From a virus (taxonomy: Duplodnaviria; Caudoviricetes): 47,104 nucleotides of DNA. Below are positions 6,241-24,524 of this stretch, piece by piece. Position 1 is the first letter of the stretch; the number at the start of each line of letters is the position of its first letter. A program made the translations under genes and the position numbers. Location: the IMG/VR virus record IMGVR_UViG_3300048865_000016, positions 1 through 47,104 of that record. One strand, written 5' to 3'. The notes under the pieces are model-generated. The model made no database searches. It saw only the letters and a list, made by a program, of their open reading frames with translations, and was not told the origin of the DNA.

Positions 6241-6424
6241 AGCCTGTCCCCTCCTTGACCAACCCTATCTCGAGCAGACGCCTCTGAAGCTTGACGTTGC
6301 GAGTGTGGATGTATCCCTGAGTGTTCAGGTCATCGATCGTAAGATTGGTACCCATCCGGGCGCCGTCCTCAAACGTGCGGTACAGCAGATCCATCAACTG
6401 GTCATGCTCAAGCTGATACGTCAT
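6233..6424 (-). CDS. Hypothetical protein
   Basis: 63 aa, overlaps both neighbours. Confidence 0.6.
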   Translation of the reverse strand: MTYQLEHDQLMDLLYRTFEDGARMGTNLTIDDLNTQGYIHTRNVKLQRRLLEIGLVKEGTGFD

Positions 6425-7137
6425 GTTGAGGATCTCTTGCCCAAAGCACTGCGGATCTTCTTGATCTCGGCCTTGGCCAGCTCTGTGTTGACAGGCTCCC
6501 TGGGTCCGCTCAGCCGCTTTGGTCTTCGGCTATCGGGCATATCCAAAAGGGGTTTATCGTGGAGCAGAAGCTTGCAGGCTTCGCGGTAGTGCCTTTTGAA
6601 GGCCTCAAGCGTGATGGGAGGACTTCCGTTCTGCAGGGCATCAAATCCGACCTGTACGGCTGCGTGGTAGATCGCCTTATGGGTCCAGTCCAGATCGCTT
6701 AGTGAATGTGAGCATTGGATGGCCTGCTTGAAAGCCTGCTCGACACTGGGCAAGCCTATTTGCTCAGGGCTTGGCTGACATAGCGCGAGGAACGTGCCGA
6801 CACTTGGGATATGGCCGTTGCCACTGGCGCGCAGATTGTCCAGACCAAAGCGCAGCTGCTCGATGGCTGTAATGCCTTCTTTGATCAAGGCATCAGCCCA
6901 TTCACGACGACAGGCGTCAAAGGTTTCCTGGTCTCTCCAGCTCTCCCGATAATGCGGGCAGATAGCTCTGAGCTGGCGGAAAAGCTGGCGGATGACATTG
7001 GCAGTACCGGAATCAATCTCGACTGCTGGAGCAAACAGGTCACGTGATGGCGCAGAAGGCTGATCTCTGGGTGCTCTCTCGACCTGGCCATGGATAACCA
7101 GTTGTGCCGGGTAGCGGTCCTCAGAGTGTGCAGTCAC
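6421..7137 (-). CDS. Replication protein P-like helicase loader
   Basis: 'LFRQLRAICP..REWADAL..GITAIEQLRFGL..PSVGTFLALC..GLPSVEQAF' lambda-P family pattern; follows the initiator. Confidence 0.85.
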   Translation of the reverse strand: MTAHSEDRYPAQLVIHGQVERAPRDQPSAPSRDLFAPAVEIDSGTANVIRQLFRQLRAICPHYRESWRDQETFDACRREWADALIKEGITAIEQLRFGLDNLRASGNGHIPSVGTFLALCQPSPEQIGLPSVEQAFKQAIQCSHSLSDLDWTHKAIYHAAVQVGFDALQNGSPPITLEAFKRHYREACKLLLHDKPLLDMPDSRRPKRLSGPREPVNTELAKAEIKKIRSALGKRSST

Positions 7138-7147
7138 GTCCTGATCC

Positions 7148-7960
7148 TCAATGTGCAGCGAGTGGTGCGGCTATCGCCTTGTCTGGCTTAACAGGCGGCT
7201 TGAGAACTGGGCTCTCCTCCTCCCGCTCCCTGTTGTCAGCAACCCACCGGACAAACTCTGCAACCCAGGCTGCCCTGGTCTGTTGTCGACTGGGACTTGT
7301 GTGGCAGACAACAAACTTCATGAGCATCACAGGTGTGAAACGCTGCAACTCGATACTCATCTCGACTGCGTAGTGTTTGAGCAGCTCCTGATCCGGCTTC
7401 CACTCCGAATACATGCTGATTACATCGCTTGGTAGCTCGTTTCCGTCTTGACGAACTGCAAGGGGAGGACTATCGGGCGCACGCGCTGGCACGCGCACGC
7501 CTGCAGGCGCGCTCGAAGAGCTCTTTTCTTTCTCTTTCTCTTTCTCTAGTCCGCAACCGGTCCGTGTTTTGTCCGCAACTCGTGCGGACATTTTGCGGAC
7601 ATCTTCGGGACGTTCTTCGGCTTGGCGGACGAGACGTTTGCGTTTGCTGTCTTCGGCGCGGCGCTTTGCAGACTTGCCGTTATGCTCGTGAAACTCAGGC
7701 ATGACGAGGCCTACAGCCTCATCGTGCACTAGCCAGCCAACATCAATCATGGCCTGGGCAATGCCCTCGTACCCAACAACGTAGTCCATCATCCGGGGGG
7801 TATAGCCTGGAAGCACACCATCATCAGAGTGTCGGTCGAACGTAGACCAGACCTCATGAAGTCCCCCGATAACCCTAAACTTGTCGGAATCCGTTGCGGA
7901 CATAATGCGGACAACTTTCGGATGGTCCTTCAGGTCCATTCGCATTTTTATCCAAGCCAT
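7148..7960 (-). CDS. Lytic replication initiator (O-like) with C-terminal DnaT-like domain
   Basis: 'MAWIKMRMDLKDHPKV' N-terminus, 'EKEKEKEK' linker, C-terminal 'WKPD..W..FV.WV'; after cro. Confidence 0.8.
   Translation of the reverse strand: MAWIKMRMDLKDHPKVVRIMSATDSDKFRVIGGLHEVWSTFDRHSDDGVLPGYTPRMMDYVVGYEGIAQAMIDVGWLVHDEAVGLVMPEFHEHNGKSAKRRAEDSKRKRLVRQAEERPEDVRKMSARVADKTRTGCGLEKEKEKEKSSSSAPAGVRVPARAPDSPPLAVRQDGNELPSDVISMYSEWKPDQELLKHYAVEMSIELQRFTPVMLMKFVVCHTSPSRQQTRAAWVAEFVRWVADNREREEESPVLKPPVKPDKAIAAPLAAH
7523..7612. repeat. Lytic origin iterons inside the O-like gene
   Basis: Direct and inverted GTCCGCA/TGCGGACA repeats next to a TTTCTC tract, as in lambdoid ori. Confidence 0.6.
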
Positions 7961-13010: not shown

Positions 13011-13066
13011 CTATCATGATGATAGTATGCTTCCCACACATCAACCAGATGCCACGGGAGGCGTCC

Positions 13067-13738
13067 ATGATTGTGCAAGTTGCCCACGTTAAAGGTGGGA
13101 TTGGAAAGTCCACGCTTGCCCTCAACCTTGCGGTGAGTCGAGCGCGGCAAGGGCGCAAAGTCTGGCTGATCGATGCCGACCGACGTCCCTCCTCTATCAA
13201 AGCATTAACCCTACGCAATGACTCAGGCGTAGAGCCTGGAATCATTGTCGGCCATTACCCAGACGGCAAAGAGCTAAGGACTCAGGTCAAGCTGCAGCGC
13301 GACATGTTTGATGACATCGTTATCGACTCTGGCGGCCAAGACTCTTCGAGCATTCGTGCAGCCCTGCTATTGGCAGATGTTCTACTGATTCCGAACTCGG
13401 TTGCTGCAGTTGAGACCTGGGCTCTTGAAGAGATGCATGCACTGCTCGAGGAAGCCTTGAGCGTGCGCGACGACGATCTGCGTGTTCATTGCATCCTCAA
13501 CAATGCCAAGCCCGGTTTCTCGAACGCTCGCAACCTGAGCGCTCAGCGAGTCGTGCAGCATTTCCCACTCTTCCCCCAGGATGACCTGGTGATCGTCAAG
13601 CGCGATGCGTTTGCCGATGCGTTCGGCCTTGGCCTGTGCGTGGATGAGCTGGAAAAGCCCGACCCGAAAGCAAGCGCCGAACTGAAAGCCCTTATGAAGT
13701 TGATCTACGGAGATGACCATGGCACAACAGCGGCCTAA
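13067..13738 (+). CDS. parA: ParA/ParF-type Walker-A partition ATPase (type Ib)
   Basis: 'KGGIGKST', 'LIDAD', 'IVIDSGG'; short, no N-terminal HTH. Confidence 0.95.
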   Translation: MIVQVAHVKGGIGKSTLALNLAVSRARQGRKVWLIDADRRPSSIKALTLRNDSGVEPGIIVGHYPDGKELRTQVKLQRDMFDDIVIDSGGQDSSSIRAALLLADVLLIPNSVAAVETWALEEMHALLEEALSVRDDDLRVHCILNNAKPGFSNARNLSAQRVVQHFPLFPQDDLVIVKRDAFADAFGLGLCVDELEKPDPKASAELKALMKLIYGDDHGTTAA

Positions 13739-13985
13739 CAACCTGCCCCCAAGCATGCGCAAGAAACCAGAAGCCGACAACGCAGCTGCGGAAGCCTTCG
13801 TTGAAGCAGCGCCAGATGCGGGCACCAAGAAGCCGGCCAAGAAGAAGCAGCCGGTCACAATGCTTTATCCAGTTGAGCTGCTCGAGCAGATCGACAAATG
13901 CGCGGCGCGCCGGCACATGACACGGACAACGTATGTGCAGCAGGTGCTTCGAGAAGAGATAGAGCGAGTGGCCAGCCAGAGCTGA
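13713..13985 (+). CDS. Ribbon-helix-helix centromere-binding protein (ParG-like)
   Basis: Flexible N-terminus 'AAEAFVEAAPD' and RHH 'PVTMLYPVELLEQIDKCAARRHMTRTTYV'; overlaps parA. Confidence 0.85.
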   Translation: MTMAQQRPNNLPPSMRKKPEADNAAAEAFVEAAPDAGTKKPAKKKQPVTMLYPVELLEQIDKCAARRHMTRTTYVQQVLREEIERVASQS

Positions 13986-14978: not shown

Positions 14979-15602
14979 ATGCCATACGTTCATCGGTACG
15001 AAGCAGTTTTGGTGAAGAGGCGTGTCTGCAGTAACGAGTCATTCTGGCCATACCTAAGCGAAGCATTAGCATTAAAGCTTTACAGAGCTTCCATGTATCA
15101 AGGCTTTAATGCTTCTCGGGTAATCGATGAGATAGCACTTCTCGAGGGAGCTACTCTGTCAAGGCACACGAACACTAAGCCAGCATCTCAATTTAGAGGC
15201 CCTCACCTTGGTAGGTTCTGGCACAAGCACTGGACTGATACAGCCTTTATTAACCAGAACCTGACCGTCCAGTGGTTTGGCCCGCATGCTCAAAAGAACA
15301 AAATTCTCAGAAAAGAAATCGAAAAGGTCTGCAAGGCTCTTGGCAAGAGTTCAGTGGATGATTTGTCCATAGCTGAGTGTTGGGAGCTCGCCAATAAGCT
15401 TTCCCATTCTGTTGTACGGGATGGGTACGAGAGCCGCAGGAGTAGAAAAGCTCTAACAGGTGAGTGGCTTATCTACTACAACCACAACGGTCAGAACTAC
15501 TACCTAGACATCGCTGTGCATTGCAGCCGAAAGGATGAGCCTGCGCTCCTGGAGCGGCTGCGTGCTGATTGTGAATGGGAGTTTCCATTTGCGTTTAGCT
15601 GA
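14979..15602 (+). CDS. Hypothetical protein, possible RelE/YafO-like RNase effector
   Basis: 207 aa; 'FWHKHW' and C-terminal 'LTGEWLIY..NYYLDIAVH' beta-meander ending in His. Confidence 0.5.
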   Translation: MPYVHRYEAVLVKRRVCSNESFWPYLSEALALKLYRASMYQGFNASRVIDEIALLEGATLSRHTNTKPASQFRGPHLGRFWHKHWTDTAFINQNLTVQWFGPHAQKNKILRKEIEKVCKALGKSSVDDLSIAECWELANKLSHSVVRDGYESRRSRKALTGEWLIYYNHNGQNYYLDIAVHCSRKDEPALLERLRADCEWEFPFAFS

Positions 15603-15679
15603 TCTGCTCTATGTTTGTATGTAATACACAAACATAAGATGTGTGTTTGTGTTTTGAAAGACAAACAAGGGAGCACGCA

Positions 15680-15949
15680 ATGCCTTGCTATACCCTTTAC
15701 GACCAGGACCGCAAACCGGTAGGCCACATCTGTGGCAAGCTTGGTCAGCACTGCGTTGAGTGCGGAGCTGTCGGTACTAATCTTTGTGATTATGTAGTTG
15801 GGAAGCGGAGCAAGACGTGTGATCGGCCATTGTGCGACTACCACGCGCGGGAGGTTGGTCCGGATCGGCACTACTGCGCGGAGCACTATTCCTTGTCACA
15901 GGAGGCGGGAGAGCAGTTTAGGCTGGAAGGATTCGATGCACATGACTGA
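15680..15949 (+). CDS. Cys-rich zinc-finger protein
   Basis: CVEC, CDY, CDRPLCDYH and CAEH motifs; GGGAG RBS. Confidence 0.75.
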   Translation: MPCYTLYDQDRKPVGHICGKLGQHCVECGAVGTNLCDYVVGKRSKTCDRPLCDYHAREVGPDRHYCAEHYSLSQEAGEQFRLEGFDAHD

Positions 15950-15987
15950 TATCTGATCGGTGTATACTGAATGTATACTAGATGCAT
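15949..15987. repeat. Half centromere-like array
   Basis: Hexamers at 15949, 15960, 15971, 15982; stops at the PIN gene stop codon. Confidence 0.6.
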
Positions 15988-15990
15988 AAC

Positions 15991-16518
15991 TTAAGACTTA
16001 GGATTCCAGTAATCTTCATCCTGGTCCGCATCGTACTGAAGTGAGTGCTGACGTAATGCGTCTGGTATCTCCAGATCTGCTATGCGTAAAGCGTTGAGTC
16101 CTAGCTTCTTCGCTTCATCTCGCATGCCCTCATCGTTCGTAAGAAGCAGACGGGCATTGTTCACCTTGGCGATTGCGATGATCTGCCAGTCAACTTTTAC
16201 AGCCTGGCGCGCCCTTTTCTCACTGCCTTGCTTCTTCCGCTCGGCTCTACCCGCATGCGACACCTGTACGGTTTCAAACGCTGCCCGCATGTCATAAGGA
16301 AGGAATTTGAAGGCAGCTGTCTTGAGAATAGCCTGGCTTTTCTCAAGCTCCTGGGGAGAGGCTTCATCCAGGAACTCAGCCCAGACCTGGGCAGGTATCC
16401 CAATCGGCTCACGCTTACGCTTGAGCTCATCGACGAGGCCTTGCATGCGGAGCTGGTCAACCTGACCGAGGCGCCGGCCAAAATACAGTGCGAGGATGTT
16501 GGTGTCCCAAATTACCAA
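15991..16518 (-). CDS. PIN-domain ribonuclease
   Basis: 'IWDTNIL..VWAEFL..VDWQIIAIA..LLTNDEG' acidic tetrad. Confidence 0.88.
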   Translation of the reverse strand: MVIWDTNILALYFGRRLGQVDQLRMQGLVDELKRKREPIGIPAQVWAEFLDEASPQELEKSQAILKTAAFKFLPYDMRAAFETVQVSHAGRAERKKQGSEKRARQAVKVDWQIIAIAKVNNARLLLTNDEGMRDEAKKLGLNALRIADLEIPDALRQHSLQYDADQDEDYWNPKS

Positions 16519-17259
16519 TTAATGCCCCTTCCGAATCCCTGCACAGCGTTCCTCAATATCAGGAACTTCACGCCAGCCATTAGCTAACTGGGTCATCTGC
16601 GCGTAAGCGTCATCCCAGTCATTAGAAAGCGGAGCAAAAGATTTCACGGTCAGCTGGATCAGCATCCAAACACCATCACCGCTGCGGCGCCACTTGCCTC
16701 TTCCCGAAACCTCAATAGGATCTCCGAGATAATGAGCTGATATCTCCTTGGCCAGCTCCTCTCCTCGGATAGTACAGGGGTACTCCACGCCATCCGTATC
16801 GATAAGCAGCATCGGGATGGTTTCGTCCTTGCCACCAATCTTGATAACCCTCCCAGTGACGGTGGACTCATCATCAACAATGAGGTCATCAACAGGCTCG
16901 GTTTTTTTACCGCCATGGAAAGGATAGATCACAGCGTCGTCAGGATTTTTCAACTCAGCTTTCTTGCCATCCTGAATCAGTAACTTGTTTATATGCTCGA
17001 GAGCGTTAAGCGCTTCTCTCGGAGCCTTGTTGCTTTTAGCAATAGCCAAGGTTATGCGCTTGGAGACAGCAAGCGCCACTTCAGGCTCAGCCCATACTCG
17101 TAAGGAAGCACTTCCTTTGACCACTCGATCAAAATGAATGTGCTCTTTCTCACCCATGAGATCCGCCAGCTCCGACAAATACAGAGCCAGCCGATCGAGC
17201 GGGAGTCTGTTAGGCGATGAGCCAATGATTCTGAACGTATAGGTGTGGGGCTTCTTCAT
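16519..17259 (-). CDS. 246-aa partner of the PIN protein (unknown function)
   Basis: Directly abuts the PIN gene; C-terminal beta-rich, OB-like region. Confidence 0.8.
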   Translation of the reverse strand: MKKPHTYTFRIIGSSPNRLPLDRLALYLSELADLMGEKEHIHFDRVVKGSASLRVWAEPEVALAVSKRITLAIAKSNKAPREALNALEHINKLLIQDGKKAELKNPDDAVIYPFHGGKKTEPVDDLIVDDESTVTGRVIKIGGKDETIPMLLIDTDGVEYPCTIRGEELAKEISAHYLGDPIEVSGRGKWRRSGDGVWMLIQLTVKSFAPLSNDWDDAYAQMTQLANGWREVPDIEERCAGIRKGH

Positions 17260-17393
17260 AGGCGAGAGTCTAGTCTTGCTCTCCGAGACGGGCCAATGAG
17301 CAATATCTATGTTCTCGGGGATCTCGAGATGAATTCTGCATGGCTTGAGAATCTCGGTCTCTAGCTGAGAAAGGAGAATTTATCTTCAAATAA

Positions 17394-17463
17394 ATGCACA
17401 ATCAATACATGGACAATGTATGTCAGATGCATGACATACATTGAATCGATATTAGATAGATAT
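17394..17463. repeat. Centromere-like array
   Basis: Hexamers at 17394, 17405, 17416, 17427 | 17436, then degenerate 17447 and 17458. Confidence 0.65.
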
Positions 17464-17613
17464 AACCCGGAGCGCGGAGGGTGAGAACGCGCCCGGGTAC
17501 AACACACGTACAACCTTTACCGGGCAGCGTGTGTTGCGTGGGCAGTATAGCTGTAGCAGTCCCTTAGAGGTGATATGAGCAAAGACGATGAGAAGGATGA
17601 GGCGCTCCCGTTT

Positions 17614-17826
17614 CTACTCGGCCCCTTCCTGGTCAACCTTCCTTTTGAAAGCAACCATCTCTTTACTTAATCTGCGACCGTCCTCCTGGTCCAGGATGCA
17701 GTCATTGCATGCATCACAGTAGTCAGCCTTCACATCCTTTATAACTGTCGAATGACCTTTATACGCATAGGGTATGTCACGTGCGTCTGTCACCAGTTCG
17801 GCCTGGCCACACATTGGGCATCGCAT
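17614..17826 (-). CDS. Stand-alone MqsA/YgiT-type zinc-finger protein
   Basis: 70 aa 'MRCPMCGQAELV..YAYKGHSTVI..YCDACND', the MqsA N-domain pattern without an HTH; AAGGAG RBS. Confidence 0.85.
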   Translation of the reverse strand: MRCPMCGQAELVTDARDIPYAYKGHSTVIKDVKADYCDACNDCILDQEDGRRLSKEMVAFKRKVDQEGAE

Positions 17827-17870
17827 CACTTCGCTCCTTGAGTTCAGCTCCGTCATATGCAACTGAGTTG

Positions 17871-17950: not shown

Positions 17951-18520
17951 ATGACCTATATGGATTGGCTGCCAAAGAATTCTTCCGAACTCGCGGCATG
18001 GATTCAAGCGATAGGATCGATAGCCGCTATCGTCGTAGCCATTGCGGTACCGGCAGTCATCAATAAAAACCAACGTCGCCTATTGGCAGATGAGAAGGAA
18101 GAGCGGGCCAAGAACGCGGTTCTCATTATCTACCCACCGATAATGGATTTGAGTCGCTCGATCGACGCCTTCATAGAGTTCAATGCACCTGACTATGACC
18201 CTGAAGATCCTGGCATTCAGATAGATCCTCATGATGGCGAATTCGCCAAGCATATCCCTCGCGTTCTTGCCGTCGCCCCTGTACTAAATGAATTACCGCC
18301 ATCAGTAGCTGGGCCAGTTCGGTCATTGGTTGCAGAGCTCATAGATTTTGATCACTGGCTCCAATCCATACCTGCAATAGAACGCTCAGGATCTCCTGCG
18401 TTTTACAGGAATAATATCGATTTCATCCGAGAGCGTGCGGAGGAGCTGGATAAGTACGCCACGACAGCAATGGGCGCGGCTTATGAAAAGCTGCATGGGA
18501 AGAATCCTAACCCAACATAA
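17951..18520 (+). CDS. N-terminally membrane-anchored hypothetical protein
   Basis: 'AAWIQAIGSIAAIVVAIAVP' TM followed by a helical domain. Confidence 0.8.
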   Translation: MTYMDWLPKNSSELAAWIQAIGSIAAIVVAIAVPAVINKNQRRLLADEKEERAKNAVLIIYPPIMDLSRSIDAFIEFNAPDYDPEDPGIQIDPHDGEFAKHIPRVLAVAPVLNELPPSVAGPVRSLVAELIDFDHWLQSIPAIERSGSPAFYRNNIDFIRERAEELDKYATTAMGAAYEKLHGKNPNPT

Positions 18521-19074
18521 CCTGACATTTTTTCAGGATTGCCTCACATGGAAGGCGAAAAAATTAACATGTGAGGCCTAAAGCCTTTACATCCAGGCCG
18601 CATCTGCAGGCGAACCGGAAGTCTATCCTGACAACCTTCCGGTTCAAGTGTCTACAAATTTACTGTTGCCAGCGCCAGCATAGAGTCCATGCGCTTTGCG
18701 GGTGCTCCAACTGTCTACAAATTTACTGCTCTATCCTGACATTTTTCCGGTTGGCCCAGGCTATATGTGTAGGGAAACCGGGTTCATATATGGAGAGAAA
18801 CCGGGTTCTTTCCTGACAACTTTCCGGTCAAGTGTCTACAAATTTACTGCTCCAGATCCCAACCGAGTATTCATGCGGTCTGGGTAGCCGTCCGAGCGAC
18901 TCATACTGTCTACAAATCTACTGTTCTATCCTGACATTTTTCCGGTTGGCCAAGCCCATATGTGGTGAGAAACCGGGTTAAGGATGTCTGTACATTAATA
19001 TGTGTAGAGAAACCGTGAAGTTGCTTCTATCAAACGTCAGTTCAATCATTGTATTTGTGTAGAGAAACCGGGTT
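18520..19074. repeat. Composite array of three iteron-like motifs
   Basis: A TCCTGACAWYYTTCCGGT x4 plus one partial; B TGTCTACAAATYTACTG x4; C ATGTGTAGAGAAACCGGGTT-like x5. Confidence 0.9.
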
Positions 19075-19078
19075 CTTC

Positions 19079-19107
19079 TTGTAGTTCTTTTGGGCAGATT
19101 GTATTGT
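19079..19107 (+). promoter_or_regulatory. Sigma70 promoter of the C4 operon
   Basis: TTGTAG-17-TATTGT immediately upstream of the a1b1 leader. Confidence 0.55.
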
Positions 19108-19114
19108 TCTGCAC

Positions 19115-19173
19115 TCGCTGCAAATTCAGCGAACGGGTTTGGCGACCCGATATGACAAAGGCGCACAGGCGCC
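19115..19173 (+). promoter_or_regulatory. c4 a1b1 target leader
   Basis: Hairpins TCGCTG..CAGCGA and CGGGT..ACCCG; a1 TTGGCGA at 19139, b1 GACAAAG at 19154. Confidence 0.8.
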
Positions 19174-19219
19174 CCAAACGAATGCAGGCGCTTTTTTTGT
19201 GCCCGTATCTTCGTGTTAT

Positions 19220-19294
19220 GGCGGCTGTGCGCGGGATACCTTCGGGTATGCCGGGTCTCTTTGTCCCCGGTTCGCCAACCTGCGCACAGCTGCC
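19220..19294 (+). ncRNA. c4: C4 antisense RNA (P1/P7 c4-like)
   Basis: Closing stem GGCGGCTGTGCGCGGG/CCTGCGCACAGCTGCC, ATACC-TTCG-GGTAT hairpin, loop CTTTGTC (b') and TCGCCAA (a') complementary to the flanking a/b sites. Confidence 0.88.
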
Positions 19295-19347
19295 TCCTAA
19301 ATCGTTTGGCGACGATCAAGGCAGCTCAAAAGACAAAGGAGCACCTC

Positions 19348-19578
19348 ATGGATCCGCTTGATCGAGCACAGCTTGAAATCAACCTGAACCTCATATTGCA
19401 CGCAGGAAAAGCATTGCAAACTATCGCCCAGCTGGTAGCTCAGAGCGATATTGCTGAACCAGGGTTTGGTGTGATCACCCAAGAGCACCGAGTTCATCTA
19501 ATGGGTGCAGTTGAAGTTATAGGCGAAAGCTTAGTAAGACGTACCTTTATTCTTGGCCAGATCCTAAGGGAAGATTAG
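19348..19578 (+). CDS. C4-controlled small protein
   Basis: 76 aa; RBS AAGGAG overlaps b2 (GACAAAG at 19332); a2 at 19306. Confidence 0.7.
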   Translation: MDPLDRAQLEINLNLILHAGKALQTIAQLVAQSDIAEPGFGVITQEHRVHLMGAVEVIGESLVRRTFILGQILRED

Positions 19579-19580
19579 TC

Positions 19581-20285
19581 ATGGAAATGGAGGCTTTATC
19601 TCCTGCCTACGTTTACTTTTTACGCCATGATAGTGAGCCACGGATAAAGATCGGCAAAGCGATTGACATGCCTCGACGCTGGAAGCAATTAGGTGAGCCA
19701 TTCAACTTGAGCCAAAGCTTCTACACAGTTTGTTCTTCTGAGGCAGAAGCCTTCGTCCTAGAAAAGAAATTACACCGAGCTTTTAAAAATCAGCGTCTCG
19801 ATCTAGATAAGCGTTTCCAAGGAAGCACCGAATGGTTCGATGCTGTTGTGATCGATACGATATTGGAACTAGTAGATGGCGTTCTACCTGTAGAGGCTGT
19901 TGCTCCTAGGCCTCGTTTAAAGAAGGTTAAGCAAAAGATGCCCATGTGGCAGATCAGGCCGGGACTATACAGCCATTGGCAATATGAGTTTCGGCTTCTT
20001 CTGATAGAGGCTCTTCGTGAGTGCACCCTAGAGTTCAAGGGTGACAAGTTATATATAGAAGGTAACCAAGCAGAGAAATATGGCTATCTCCTGTTCCGAT
20101 ACTGGGTCGATTATCAGGTAGGTTATGAATCAGGATGGTTTAAAATTTTTGGATCAATGAGCATTCCAAACCCTCCTAGCCTTCGATATAGCCTCACCAT
20201 CAATTCCTCTATTCCTCTGTCAACTTTTGCTGGTTTGGTAGCGGTCCCTGGTGAGCAGTTTCAGACCTCTTTTTCATATGTGTAG
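19581..20285 (+). CDS. GIY-YIG (T5orf172-like) domain protein
   Basis: 'YVYFL..IKIGKA..R..QL..LEKKLHRAF..GSTEWF'. Confidence 0.88.
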   Translation: MEMEALSPAYVYFLRHDSEPRIKIGKAIDMPRRWKQLGEPFNLSQSFYTVCSSEAEAFVLEKKLHRAFKNQRLDLDKRFQGSTEWFDAVVIDTILELVDGVLPVEAVAPRPRLKKVKQKMPMWQIRPGLYSHWQYEFRLLLIEALRECTLEFKGDKLYIEGNQAEKYGYLLFRYWVDYQVGYESGWFKIFGSMSIPNPPSLRYSLTINSSIPLSTFAGLVAVPGEQFQTSFSYV

Positions 20286-20498
20286 AGATCCCGTGTTTCT
20301 ATTAGATCTTTGCTTTTGCTCTGAAAAAAAGAAAGAGTTTGTATTTTTCTTTTCTTTTTCCTTTTTAAGGGCCGCTACAGCCCAGTCCTGGCGCGGCTTT
20401 CAGCGTCTATATGTGTAGAGATCCCGTGTTTGATGTGTAGTCAAACCGGGTAATATGTGTAGTCAAACCGGGTAATATGTGTAGCTAAACCGGGTTCG
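20276..20498 (+). repeat. Plasmid oriV: iteron, AT-rich region, four tandem 22-bp iterons
   Basis: ATGTGTAGnnAWMCCGKGT at 20411, 20433, 20455, 20477 and a lone copy near 20278; A/T tract about 20300-20367; directly upstream of rep. Confidence 0.92.
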
Positions 20499-20515: not shown

Positions 20516-21358
20516 GTGGTCAAGAAAAACAAGAAGGACATGGTTGTTCAATCGAACCACTTGGTTGAAGCGGCTTACCAGTTGAGTCTTGGGGAAAAAA
20601 GACTGCTTCTGTTTTGCATAGCCCAGATCCGACGCGATAGCGAGCTGACGGATCAAGTTATGTATACAGTTCACGCTTCTGATTATGCCAAGCGCTTCAA
20701 CATTAAACTAAACGCCGCCTATGAAGAGATGGCACTAGCTGCTACCAAGCTTGAAAGCGAAAGCCGTGTAACTATTTATAGAGACATCGATGGGAAACCG
20801 GCCAAGTTAAAGCCTCGGTGGGTACAGACAGCAGGTTACTTGCCTCGAGAAGGCAAGGTCGCTCTTCGATTCAACCACGACGTTGTTCCGTACCTTTCGC
20901 AACTGCAGACAGAGTTCACTCAGTATCACCTAGATGATGTCTCTAGAATGACAAGTCCTAACGCTATCAGACTCTATGAGCTTCTAGTCAAATGGCGTAA
21001 TAGCGGTGATATGCATACGTTTGAGATCAACACGCTCAAATCACTGATGGGACTCGATGAAAGATATACATTAATGTCTAACTTTAGGAGGTCAGTGCTA
21101 GATGTCTGCGTGGCCCAGATCAATACACATTCCCCTTTATTCGTCAGCTATGAGCTAGTCAAATCAGGCCGCAGCGTTTCCCATCTTACCTTTCATTACT
21201 CAGATAAATTACTTGAACCCCTTGAAGTATCTGATCCTAAGGTACCGAAACCGGGTAAGAAAACACTTACTCGTGATCTGATTGCTCGCAAAGCTTTACC
21301 TGGAGAAACGTGGGAACAAGCAGAGGCTCGACTAAAAAAGGCTTTGGCTTCTGTCTAA
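20516..21358 (+). CDS. Rep_3-family plasmid replication initiator
   Basis: 'VVQSNHLVEAAYQLSLGEKRLL..RWV..YLSQL..FTQY..AIRLYELL..NFRRSVLD..QIN'. Confidence 0.95.
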   Translation: MVKKNKKDMVVQSNHLVEAAYQLSLGEKRLLLFCIAQIRRDSELTDQVMYTVHASDYAKRFNIKLNAAYEEMALAATKLESESRVTIYRDIDGKPAKLKPRWVQTAGYLPREGKVALRFNHDVVPYLSQLQTEFTQYHLDDVSRMTSPNAIRLYELLVKWRNSGDMHTFEINTLKSLMGLDERYTLMSNFRRSVLDVCVAQINTHSPLFVSYELVKSGRSVSHLTFHYSDKLLEPLEVSDPKVPKPGKKTLTRDLIARKALPGETWEQAEARLKKALASV

Positions 21359-21362
21359 AGAC

Positions 21363-21498
21363 AGTCGGAATTCTTAGTCGATAGCGCCTGCATATGACCA
21401 AGGCTTATCAGCATAGCCGGAAAGTTTAGTCGTTAATCACACCTTCAAGGCTGCTTAAACCTGGGCCTTAGCTATATAGCCGGAATCTTTAGTCGATA
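21363..21498 (+). repeat. Three dispersed 18-21 bp repeats downstream of rep
   Basis: AGYCGGAAWBYTTAGTCG at 21363, 21415, 21478. Confidence 0.8.
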
Positions 21499-21754: not shown

Positions 21755-22165
21755 CTAAACCCAGTTTGCATAATTAAGACCTGGAACTCGACTGAACTCA
21801 CGCAAGTTGTTAGAGACCAGTACGCAGCCAGTAGCAAGTGCATGTCCAGCTATCAGCGTGTCATTTGTGCCAATAGTCTTACCGGCCTGACTCAGCACAT
21901 CCATGACCTCGATTGCGGAATCAATGGCGCGGCTATCCAAAGGAAGGATGGCATCTACTCGGGCAACAAACTCATCTATCAACCCCTTGAGTTTTGGGGA
22001 TGCCTTTTTACCGATCTGCCCAGTGCGCATTTCCATGTAGGTGACTGTAGAAATCACAATCTGGTTACCCTTTTCTACCTCAGCCGCCAATTTCTCAAGA
22101 ACAGCTATTGGATGCTCTTTCATAATGTAAGAGCAGATATTGGTATCGAGCATGTAAGTAATCAC
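21755..22165 (-). CDS. vapC: VapC PIN toxin
   Basis: 'YMLDTNICSYIM..E..IGTNDTLIAGHA..LVSNNLREFSRVPGL..NW'. Confidence 0.95.
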   Translation of the reverse strand: MITYMLDTNICSYIMKEHPIAVLEKLAAEVEKGNQIVISTVTYMEMRTGQIGKKASPKLKGLIDEFVARVDAILPLDSRAIDSAIEVMDVLSQAGKTIGTNDTLIAGHALATGCVLVSNNLREFSRVPGLNYANWV

Positions 22166-22392
22166 AGATCGAACCGACCTTCATCAGCAATGACGTCAGG
22201 CCGCTCATTCAGGAAATCAGGATCAGCCTTTGGCAGTGTGGCGAATGATGTCCAGGATGGACGAGCAGGACGCAGGATAGTCACGTCACCTTCACGCCTG
22301 ATCTCAAGCTCTCCGACACCTTCATAAGCCATGTCAGCGGGTAGGCGCACTGCCTGGTTCTTACCATTTTTGAAAATAGATACGGTACGCAT
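22162..22392 (-). CDS. vapB: VapB (AbrB-like) antitoxin
   Basis: 'MRTVSIFKNGKNQAVRLPADMAYEGVGELEI'. Confidence 0.95.
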   Translation of the reverse strand: MRTVSIFKNGKNQAVRLPADMAYEGVGELEIRREGDVTILRPARPSWTSFATLPKADPDFLNERPDVIADEGRFDL

Positions 22393-22404
22393 TTCCTTAC
22401 TCCA

Positions 22405-22460
22405 GCATATGCAAGACATATGCATTGTAAGTACGTGCGTAGGCATATGCAAGGCATAGG
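22405..22460. promoter_or_regulatory. vapBC operator repeats
   Basis: CATATGCA at 22406, 22417 and 22444 upstream of vapB. Confidence 0.65.
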
Positions 22461-22613: not shown

Positions 22614-23756
22614 ATGCCGTATCGCCGCAAAGACTCCAAGTTCTACTGGATTTCCTATATGGACTCGTCGGGTGAGTACATCCAGCGATCATCCAAGACG
22701 ACCAAACTGGCGGAGGCCAAGGTCCTCGAGCAGACTGAACGTGCGCAGGCGTGGCGTGATCGTCAGTTGGGCATCAAACCGCCCAAAACATTTGAGCAAG
22801 TGGTCACCAAGTACCTGCTGCATGCTCGCCAGGTGCAGCGCAGCTATGACACAACGGTGATCCGGATCGAGATCCTGCGCCGGCACTTCGCTGGTCAGGT
22901 CATCAACAACCTGACTGCAGCTGACGTACGCCATTACATCGATGCTCGCCTGAAGGATGGAATCTCCAACAGCTCAATCAACCGCGAGCTGTCTGCGCTG
23001 TCGGCAGCTATCAATCACTGCAACAAGGAGTACGAGTGGGAGCTGCCCAACCCTGTCAGTGGTAGACGAACCAAAGAGCCAGAGGGTCGGGTGCGTTGGC
23101 TGCGTCGAGCGGAAGTGGAGGCACTGTGCCGTGCAGCCAGAGAACAACGCCATGGCGAGCTGCTCGACGACTTTATCCGGCTTGCCGTTAATACAGGCAT
23201 GCGCAAAGAGGAGCTGCTGGGACTGGAGTGGTCACGCGTTGACTTGGCCAACATGCTCATCCACCTGGACAGCGAGCACAACAAATCTGGAAAACGGCGA
23301 TCCATTCCGATTAACCAGAAGGCGCTCACCATACTACGGTCCAGGCTGGCCCATCGAGCCGAGCATTGCCCGGATGCACCGCATGTGTTTGTGCGTGACA
23401 CAGGTGAGCGGGTCAAAACAGTCCGGACCGGATTTGAGAGTGCCTGCAAGGCAGCCGGTATTCAGGATCTGCACATTCACGACCTGCGCCACACGTTCGC
23501 TGCTCACCTGGTGAGCGAGGGTGTACCGCTTCCGGAAGTACGAGATCTGCTTGGCCACTCGACGATCATCATGACTGAGCGTTATGCGCACCTTGCGCCG
23601 GCGCGGGTAAGAAAGGCAGTCGAAGTACTCGATCTGTTGGGTGATGAGGAGTCAGAAGGGTCGTTACGTTCAGACTACGGCATAAATCCAGTGCATCGAG
23701 AAAAAGAACCAACGATACGGCTCAAGGCTATACAGGGTGGGGCTTTGCGGGAATAG
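22614..23756 (+). CDS. int: Tyrosine recombinase / integrase
   Basis: N-terminal arm-like domain, 'TGMRKEE', 'HDLRH', 'LLGHS', 'TERY'. Confidence 0.95.
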   Translation: MPYRRKDSKFYWISYMDSSGEYIQRSSKTTKLAEAKVLEQTERAQAWRDRQLGIKPPKTFEQVVTKYLLHARQVQRSYDTTVIRIEILRRHFAGQVINNLTAADVRHYIDARLKDGISNSSINRELSALSAAINHCNKEYEWELPNPVSGRRTKEPEGRVRWLRRAEVEALCRAAREQRHGELLDDFIRLAVNTGMRKEELLGLEWSRVDLANMLIHLDSEHNKSGKRRSIPINQKALTILRSRLAHRAEHCPDAPHVFVRDTGERVKTVRTGFESACKAAGIQDLHIHDLRHTFAAHLVSEGVPLPEVRDLLGHSTIIMTERYAHLAPARVRKAVEVLDLLGDEESEGSLRSDYGINPVHREKEPTIRLKAIQGGALRE

Positions 23757-23940
23757 TCAGGATGACGTAGAAATGACGATGCACTGGATACTATATCCAG
23801 TGCATCGAGCGAAAGACGGCATAGCTTCTAGGTTTTGCGGAACAGCTTGAGTTGAAAGCGGGACAGAAAGGCGGGAAATGGATGTTACGTTCAGTCGACT
23901 TAAATGTGCGACTGTCTCCATCTAGTTCAGAACGTAGCGG
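23661..23940. other. Candidate att/res region
   Basis: Palindrome CGATGCACTGGATA-CTA-TATCCAGTGCATCG at 23777-23807; half-sites at 23685 and 22480; TTACGTTCAG and TGACG arm-like repeats. Confidence 0.55.
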
Positions 23941-23991
23941 TGATTACCGATAGTGAGGGTATGCCAGCCAATTCGGCGCGGCCCCCTCAGG

Positions 23992-24297
23992 ATGATCATC
24001 ATGATCGAAGCTGTCATAACCTCTCGCATTGAATACCGCATTACCCGTCATAACGGCTTCGACATCAAGCGTATGCGGCCCTGCCTTAAACGCATGCGTA
24101 AGATCACCGCTGAACATCACCAGACCTACTATTACGGAGAGTACTCTCACCATGACGTCTGGACAGAAGATGGCTGGCTTGTGATCTCCGTCTTTGGAGA
24201 AGATGGTCTGCAGAGTGGTATCAGAAAGGGCACGGCTGTAGGATTCGTCCACTTTGCTCCAGAGACGCCACTCTATGTTGATGTATCCAGAAAATGA
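23992..24297 (+). CDS. Hypothetical protein (start uncertain)
   Basis: ATGA overlap with the downstream HTH gene. Confidence 0.55.
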   Translation: MIIMIEAVITSRIEYRITRHNGFDIKRMRPCLKRMRKITAEHHQTYYYGEYSHHDVWTEDGWLVISVFGEDGLQSGIRKGTAVGFVHFAPETPLYVDVSRK

Positions 24298-24524
24298 CCA
24301 AACGACCTGACGCCAGCCAGCACAATGGCGATCCTGAATATCTGCGATCGCTGATCGAGCAGTCAGGTCTCTCAATACGTCAGACGGCGGATCAGATCGG
24401 GATCCGCCGTACTGAACTGCAGGCCTACCTTTACGATGAGGCAGACGAACGCCATCGTACCGTGACGTACCCAGTACAGTTTGCGTTGGAATGCCTAGCG
24501 ATACCGGAGAAAGCCAATGACTGA
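24294..24524 (+). CDS. XRE-like HTH protein
   Basis: 'PEYLRSLIEQSGLSIRQTADQIGI..YPVQFALECLA'. Confidence 0.8.
   Translation: MTKRPDASQHNGDPEYLRSLIEQSGLSIRQTADQIGIRRTELQAYLYDEADERHRTVTYPVQFALECLAIPEKAND

Follow-up and report, generated by a model that had tools for sequence, protein, structure and literature searches.

Own and foreign iterons interleaved in one array of a phage-plasmid, a candidate one-way incompatibility locus

What might a replicon gain from carrying, outside its own origin, an array of iteron-like sites of three kinds, only one of which resembles its own iterons? The question is raised by the DNA analysed here (the window), a whole contig of 47,104 bp with a 126-bp overlap between its ends. 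By Pfam and PHROGs assignment of its 72 ORFs it carries lambdoid phage genes (terminase, portal, capsid, tail, CI/Cro and O/P-like) along with a ParA and its small partner, a single Rep3 initiator and a tyrosine recombinase; given this combination on one contig, the element is a phage-plasmid. As the ParA groups with Pseudomonas-named proteins, one of them bearing the UniProt suffix PSELU, which we take to stand for P. luteola, the 47-kb phage-plasmid probably belongs to the Pseudomonas luteola group. The lambda O/P-like lytic replication genes (6421-7960, minus strand, with their own internal repeats at 7547-7615) are separate from the plasmid replicon, so that the phage has two replication systems. 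The features around the array are as follows.

13016..13985, + strand: ParA and small partner, common to the family members whichever initiator they have
18603..19074, + strand: mixed iteron array, non-coding
19101..19300, + strand: C4 antisense RNA gene with its a1/b1 target (Rfam RF03163 and RF01695, above gathering score)
20278..20496, + strand: own plasmid origin, with a C iteron at 20278, an AT-rich stretch near 20300-20379 and four C iterons
20516..21358, + strand: own initiator, RepC, of the Rep3 family (PF01051 and PF21205)
21363..21497, - strand: three D sites (21363, 21415, 21478), similar to the iterons found in large Pseudomonas plasmids, e.g. pCAR1
22614..24524, + strand: tyrosine recombinase, an ORF and a small HTH gene (HTH 24294-24524), alternative candidate binders of B

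The replication slot is flanked by cargo at 14979-17862 and 21755-22452, in which small unknown genes occur together with MqsA-like and VapBC-like ones. Immediately upstream of the array lies an uncharacterised gene of about 185 aa that looks membrane-anchored (17951-18520); it is present in one copy in the window and as tandem paralogues in two relatives described below, two in L001 (2880-4082) and three in L227 (5251-8018). On the other side, window 19101-20285 holds the C4 antisense cassette and then a short ORF and a T5orf172-domain gene, oriented towards rep.

The mixed array is real, with four A, four B and five C sites in non-coding DNA, and each site begins where the initial annotation had placed it (A at 18626, 18734, 18811 and 18929; B at 18649, 18712, 18833 and 18907; C at 18765, 18788, 18960, 19000 and 19055). 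Exact A or B matches number eight in the window and none in 200 first-order Markov simulations of 47 kb, scanned on both strands. By motif positions the array reads c'-A-B-46bp-B-A-C-C-A-B-57bp-B-A-C-C-C, all on the + strand:

18626..18643, + strand: A1, putative foreign (A-type Rep3) iteron, one base off an auxiliary iteron of the sister phage G002
18649..18665, + strand: B1, iteron-like site (motif match)
18712..18728, + strand: B2 (motif match)
18734..18751, + strand: A2, a perfect match to the first origin iteron of a Xylella taiwanensis plasmid and one base off that of G002
18765..18807, + strand: C1 and C2, own auxiliary iterons (starts 18765, 18788; own-iteron profile)
18811..18828, + strand: A3 (motif match)
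18833..18849, + strand: B3 (motif match)
18907..18923, + strand: B4 (motif match)
18929..18946, + strand: A4 (motif match)
18960..19074, + strand: C3, C4 and C5, own auxiliary iterons (starts 18960, 19000, 19055; own-iteron profile)

From 18626 the start-to-start spacings are 23, 63, 22, 31, 23, 23, 22, 74, 22, 31, 40 and 55 bp. The 22-23 bp pitch said to separate adjacent motifs thus holds for A-B, B-A, C-C and C-A but not for A-C, where 31 bp is about three helical turns, or for B-B, where 63 or 74 bp is six or seven. A further partial A, reported just upstream, is instead a hairpin where the preceding gene stops (18521) and is absent from L001; what does precede the first A, by 23 bp, is a decayed C at 18603, whose L001 counterpart is more C-like. 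The non-coding status of the array also stands, as its 81-aa ORF (18571-18816) is not kept in L001, where the longest open stretch is 71 codons. Several other identities were considered and rejected. A structured RNA is disfavoured by all ten folds, whose z lies between -1.1 and +1.1, and by an unfavourable consensus covariation term, and Rfam had no match within the array. A CRISPR-like array would have one repeat with unique spacers, and here the spacers are homologous to each other. A centromere (parS) of the ParA system is countered by the family member G493, which has the par operon yet no B at up to two mismatches and one mutated A.

The C sites are the most readily accounted for. The window's own origin has four C iterons at a 22-bp pitch (20411-20496), and a profile trained on five origin or operator iterons and three array C sites gives all array C sites 23-32 bits, including 23.5 and 23.8 for the two on which it was not trained, and every A and B a negative score (-4 to -17, with the best offset taken and both strands considered). 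That only C matches the element's own oriV iterons, as first claimed, is therefore correct. The five C sites are repeats for the element's own Rep outside its origin, as auxiliary iterons of the incA/incC type are; the array as a whole departs from that type, in which all repeats are cognate, as A and B score negative and A is cognate to another Rep. A and C do have a CCGG half in common at the same offset, and weak binding of RepC to A is for that reason possible. Directly after rep lie the three D sites, spaced 52 and 63 bp; in L001 there are two, both weaker. The iterons that precede rep in pCAR1, in pHS-18 and in a 98-kb Pseudomonas plasmid differ from the best D copies at 1-2 of 19 bases. 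D is possibly a fourth foreign iteron type, less conserved than the others.

The origin to which A belongs was reached through an exact search for B, which led to L014 (G002, 41 kb). G002 is a sister phage with the same gene order, 78% identity in ParA and 64% in integrase, and tail and regulatory proteins mostly 30-60% identical to those of the window. At the slot occupied by RepC in the window, G002 has four A copies at a 21-bp pitch, after them a DnaA-box-like 8-mer, and then an inverted A that covers the start codon of a Rep3 gene, whose product is 25% identical to RepC. In PLSDB, which gave six records in total, intergenic matches to the array were confined to five plasmid records from X. 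taiwanensis; the one fetched carries a pair of A copies, spaced 21 bp, ahead of a Rep that is 64% identical to that of G002. Related 21-22-bp repeats occur in five of six further A-family plasmid origins fetched. To judge from these origins, A is the origin iteron of another Rep3 initiator, that of G002 and of the Xylella plasmid, and the suggestion that A might be found in tandem directly upstream of non-orthologous rep genes is borne out in both. The array's A sites track the iteron of the G002-type Rep to the base, 5' flank included, while the window, G001 (the genome of L001) and G002 have one Rep3 gene each; A in the window thus matches the functional site of another replicon, with no gene for that initiator in cis. 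At A2 and A4 the window agrees with the Xylella plasmid and L001 with G002, a difference that may reflect conversion or the tracking of different rivals. Single A matches in L003, L004 and L006-L008 are isolated and were taken as chance.

For B, no cognate origin with tandem copies was found in viral contigs, GTDB, PLSDB, metagenomes or genomes. Exact B occurs at 14 loci in viral contigs, in multiple copies at two (L013, which is L001's contig, and L014). GTDB gave 11 single matches, none with a Pseudomonas title, and PLSDB one full-length match, within a gene; the full array was not found in phage records. A metagenome scan for B pairs with a loose 11-base core, covering 31 of 64 parts, yielded no exact pair among the 116 loci examined. 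Among 401 genomes of a family chosen as Pseudomonadaceae by a marker, 67 have scattered near-matches and no cluster, and among 17 genomes of G493's genus two have isolated matches; the family of G145 was a wrong lead. A profile search with ten Reps gave, in the best 120 of 843 matches, no candidate on a contig of about 49 kb except L001's own. Parts of B nonetheless recur in Rep3 iterons: bases 1-11 equal tandem 22-bp iterons ahead of the Rep3 genes in L064, L069 and L088, the central nine bases match iterons of a P. luteola P2-like phage-plasmid (L169, 19900-22353), and the last eight match another Rep3 origin, from G493's genus. The P2-like phage-plasmid also has related par genes. These partial matches favour B as an iteron, a putative one for which the searches made gave no matching initiator. 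The reading of the non-C motifs as sites for foreign Reps is accordingly supported for A, while for B no corresponding origin came out of these searches.

Both motifs appear to be maintained. L001, whose RepC is 96% identical, has the same duplicated array, and between it and the window A and B together differ at 3 of 140 bases as against 22 of 57 in the B-B spacer (Fisher p 5e-11); four-fold sites differ at 29/98, 56/184 and 44/117, and the own origin iterons at 0/100. In this one genome pair, motif divergence is 2% and neutral divergence about 30-39%, which argues that A and B are selected and are not fossils. The array spacing changes by roughly one helical turn at a time, with B-B 63 versus 74 bp (11 bp), A-C 31 versus 41 bp (10 bp) and B-A 22 bp in the window versus 33 bp in G002 (11 bp). 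G002 has B-B-A-A adjoining its origin, with both B copies, arranged as B-74 bp-B, equal to the window consensus and a spacer only 35-39% identical, ungapped, to the window's; six of the 18 exact matches of at least 15 bases between window and G002 lie in A or B sites. On these comparisons, purifying selection acts on A and B in members without an A-type Rep.

The family also includes G493 (contig C42, locus L227), with the same par operon, its own iterons and a TrfA-like initiator. Its replicon (L227 847-3100) matches TrfA weakly in Pfam (E 4e-6) and contains some 18 iterons of its own, arranged as two opposed groups, and its array site is interrupted by an IS605 tnpB fragment. Because the same par operon accompanies three different initiators, comparison of the loci shows that the initiator module has been swapped at one slot: Rep3 of type C, Rep3 of type A, and TrfA-like. 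Exchange of replicon modules in Pseudomonas has been reported for a family without iterons (PMC5304414). A 48,975-bp contig in runs X5 and X6, counted as one, has an A/B/C array with neither Rep covered at 80%; it could be a fourth member with another initiator, missing cover being no proof. Run X4, a small-share match like X5 and X6, covers L001-like DNA in pieces, and integrase and ParA scans gave no further viral members with a Rep.

Binding of Rep to iterons is reported to be sequence-specific and, for sites in phase, cooperative (PMC4980987), and extra iterons are reported to titrate and handcuff Rep (PMC12361487); four A sites should therefore burden an A-type sister. The reading preferred here, to which we give a probability of about 0.5, is that the array may be an auxiliary iteron locus serving as a one-way incompatibility device, by titrating or handcuffing the A-type initiator of the sister. 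The C sites would adjust the element's own copy number, as in ordinary incA-type control, and the A sites would bind an A-type sister's Rep, whether that sister is arriving or already resident, and lower its initiation, so that the sister is burdened and the carrier's own C origin unaffected. The A and B sites would have been inherited from earlier initiator modules and retained for binding the sister's Rep, the B-B-A unit coming from an A-type ancestor like G002 before being duplicated and interleaved with C. B would act likewise against another initiator, one that the searches did not find. Put more generally, and as a tentative extension only, phage-plasmids that swap initiators may retain and duplicate the iterons of former or sister modules (A, B and perhaps, for large Pseudomonas plasmids, D) as a selected, multi-specific, DNA-only memory that excludes several rivals at the level of replication without a protein. 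Against the incompatibility reading, the three motifs alternate in phase, an arrangement that would fit one protein or complex and that decoys acting independently do not need; the reading presumes a host shared with G002; and the array is reduced in the TrfA-type member, the single mutated A of which marks it as dispensable, while the window has no sites for that sister and G002 has no C sites.

The phasing speaks for a doubtful though serious alternative, namely that A and/or B are bound by the element's own proteins and the array is an internal copy-control or recombination structure. RepC could recognise a second, weaker class of site, for which the Vibrio cholerae initiator RctB, reported to bind 12-mers and 39-mers that are unlike each other, is a precedent (PMC6090056), and B could be bound by the small HTH protein (24294-24524) or the arm domain of the integrase. 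These last two genes accompany B in every complete phage with the motif (three of three), and their products rank with the best-conserved proteins of window and G002 (the HTH protein is 93% identical in G001 and 76% in G002); they were not found in G493, which is without B, although that absence rests on a draft assembly and four members. It is difficult to reconcile with such binding that A is negative on the C profile and follows another Rep's iteron, flank included, that the first 11 and last 8 bases of B match the iterons of other Rep3 origins, and that no B is present at three phage loci with integrases 45-59% identical, one of which ends at the gene.

The phasing of unlike sites would also be accounted for if a foreign Rep on A or B altered how RepC occupies neighbouring C sites, or acted on the promoter of the next operon, under C4 control, and the prophage thereby raised its copy number or was induced on a rival's arrival, in the manner of crtS, a site for another replicon's initiator (PMC6090056). 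The C4 cassette begins 27 bp past the last C site, directly downstream of the array; however, G002, with its B-B-A-A, showed nothing like the C4 region over the DNA compared, the cassette is inverted and separated in the TrfA-type member, and no sigma-70 consensus promoter was found within the array, and such a sensor is improbable. That the sites are neutral remnants of earlier initiator modules is more improbable still: initiator swaps at the slot, the likely source of the B-B-A unit beside the G002 origin and the loss of the array in one member all suit it, but it is largely refuted by the low motif divergence, and turn-sized indels, duplication of the unit in C-type members and retention of position-specific A variants also speak against it. 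Least probable is a second origin that borrows a helper Rep, one of the functions first proposed. Foreign iterons are present, but successive A copies lie at distances of 108, 77 and 118 bp and not in tandem, GC across the A/B part is 47-49% with no AT-rich patch within the array, and no DnaA-box consensus was found in the array or nearby, though A-type origins have a DnaA box; the array was rejected as an iteron origin on the same grounds.

Iteron incompatibility is usually seen as a side effect of a shared replicon. If the incompatibility reading is right, here it would act as a weapon, in one direction only, among compatible replicons, a payoff of initiator swapping would be explained, and Rep-based typing would mispredict coexistence. 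Since both partners, the array and the G002 replicon, are now identified, small constructs could test the idea directly.

The closest known systems are each similar in part. P1 incA and F incC are auxiliary iterons, and the likeness extends to non-origin iterons near rep on a phage-plasmid with whole-turn spacing, a description that C fits fully; unlike there, 8 of the 13 array sites differ in kind from the element's own iteron, four of them matching the origin of another initiator. The IncQ-like plasmid pIE1107 reportedly has a second, non-functional origin whose non-cognate iterons give incompatibility. Non-cognate iterons are common to both cases, but pIE1107 has a whole spare origin for a closely related Rep family, whereas here a duplicated mosaic of dispersed sites faces an initiator of 25% identity. 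In the literature searched, which included few older subscription papers, no description of a mixed foreign-iteron array was found; the view that no system of this design had been described is nevertheless too strong, as site mimicry that expels a plasmid has been published: SGI1 is reported to mimic the parS of IncC plasmids and thereby to destabilise them, with binding shown (PMC10954446). Like SGI1 as so reported, the present element carries the protein-binding site of another replicon, here A; the SGI1 case involves ParB and a helper plasmid, and the predicted target here is a sister phage's replication initiator, while at least two types of foreign site would be involved. As reported, crtS is likewise a site for another replicon's initiator, and RctB one initiator with two site classes (PMC6090056), but both are chromosomal and serve cooperative timing, whereas the array described here would serve conflict between mobile elements.
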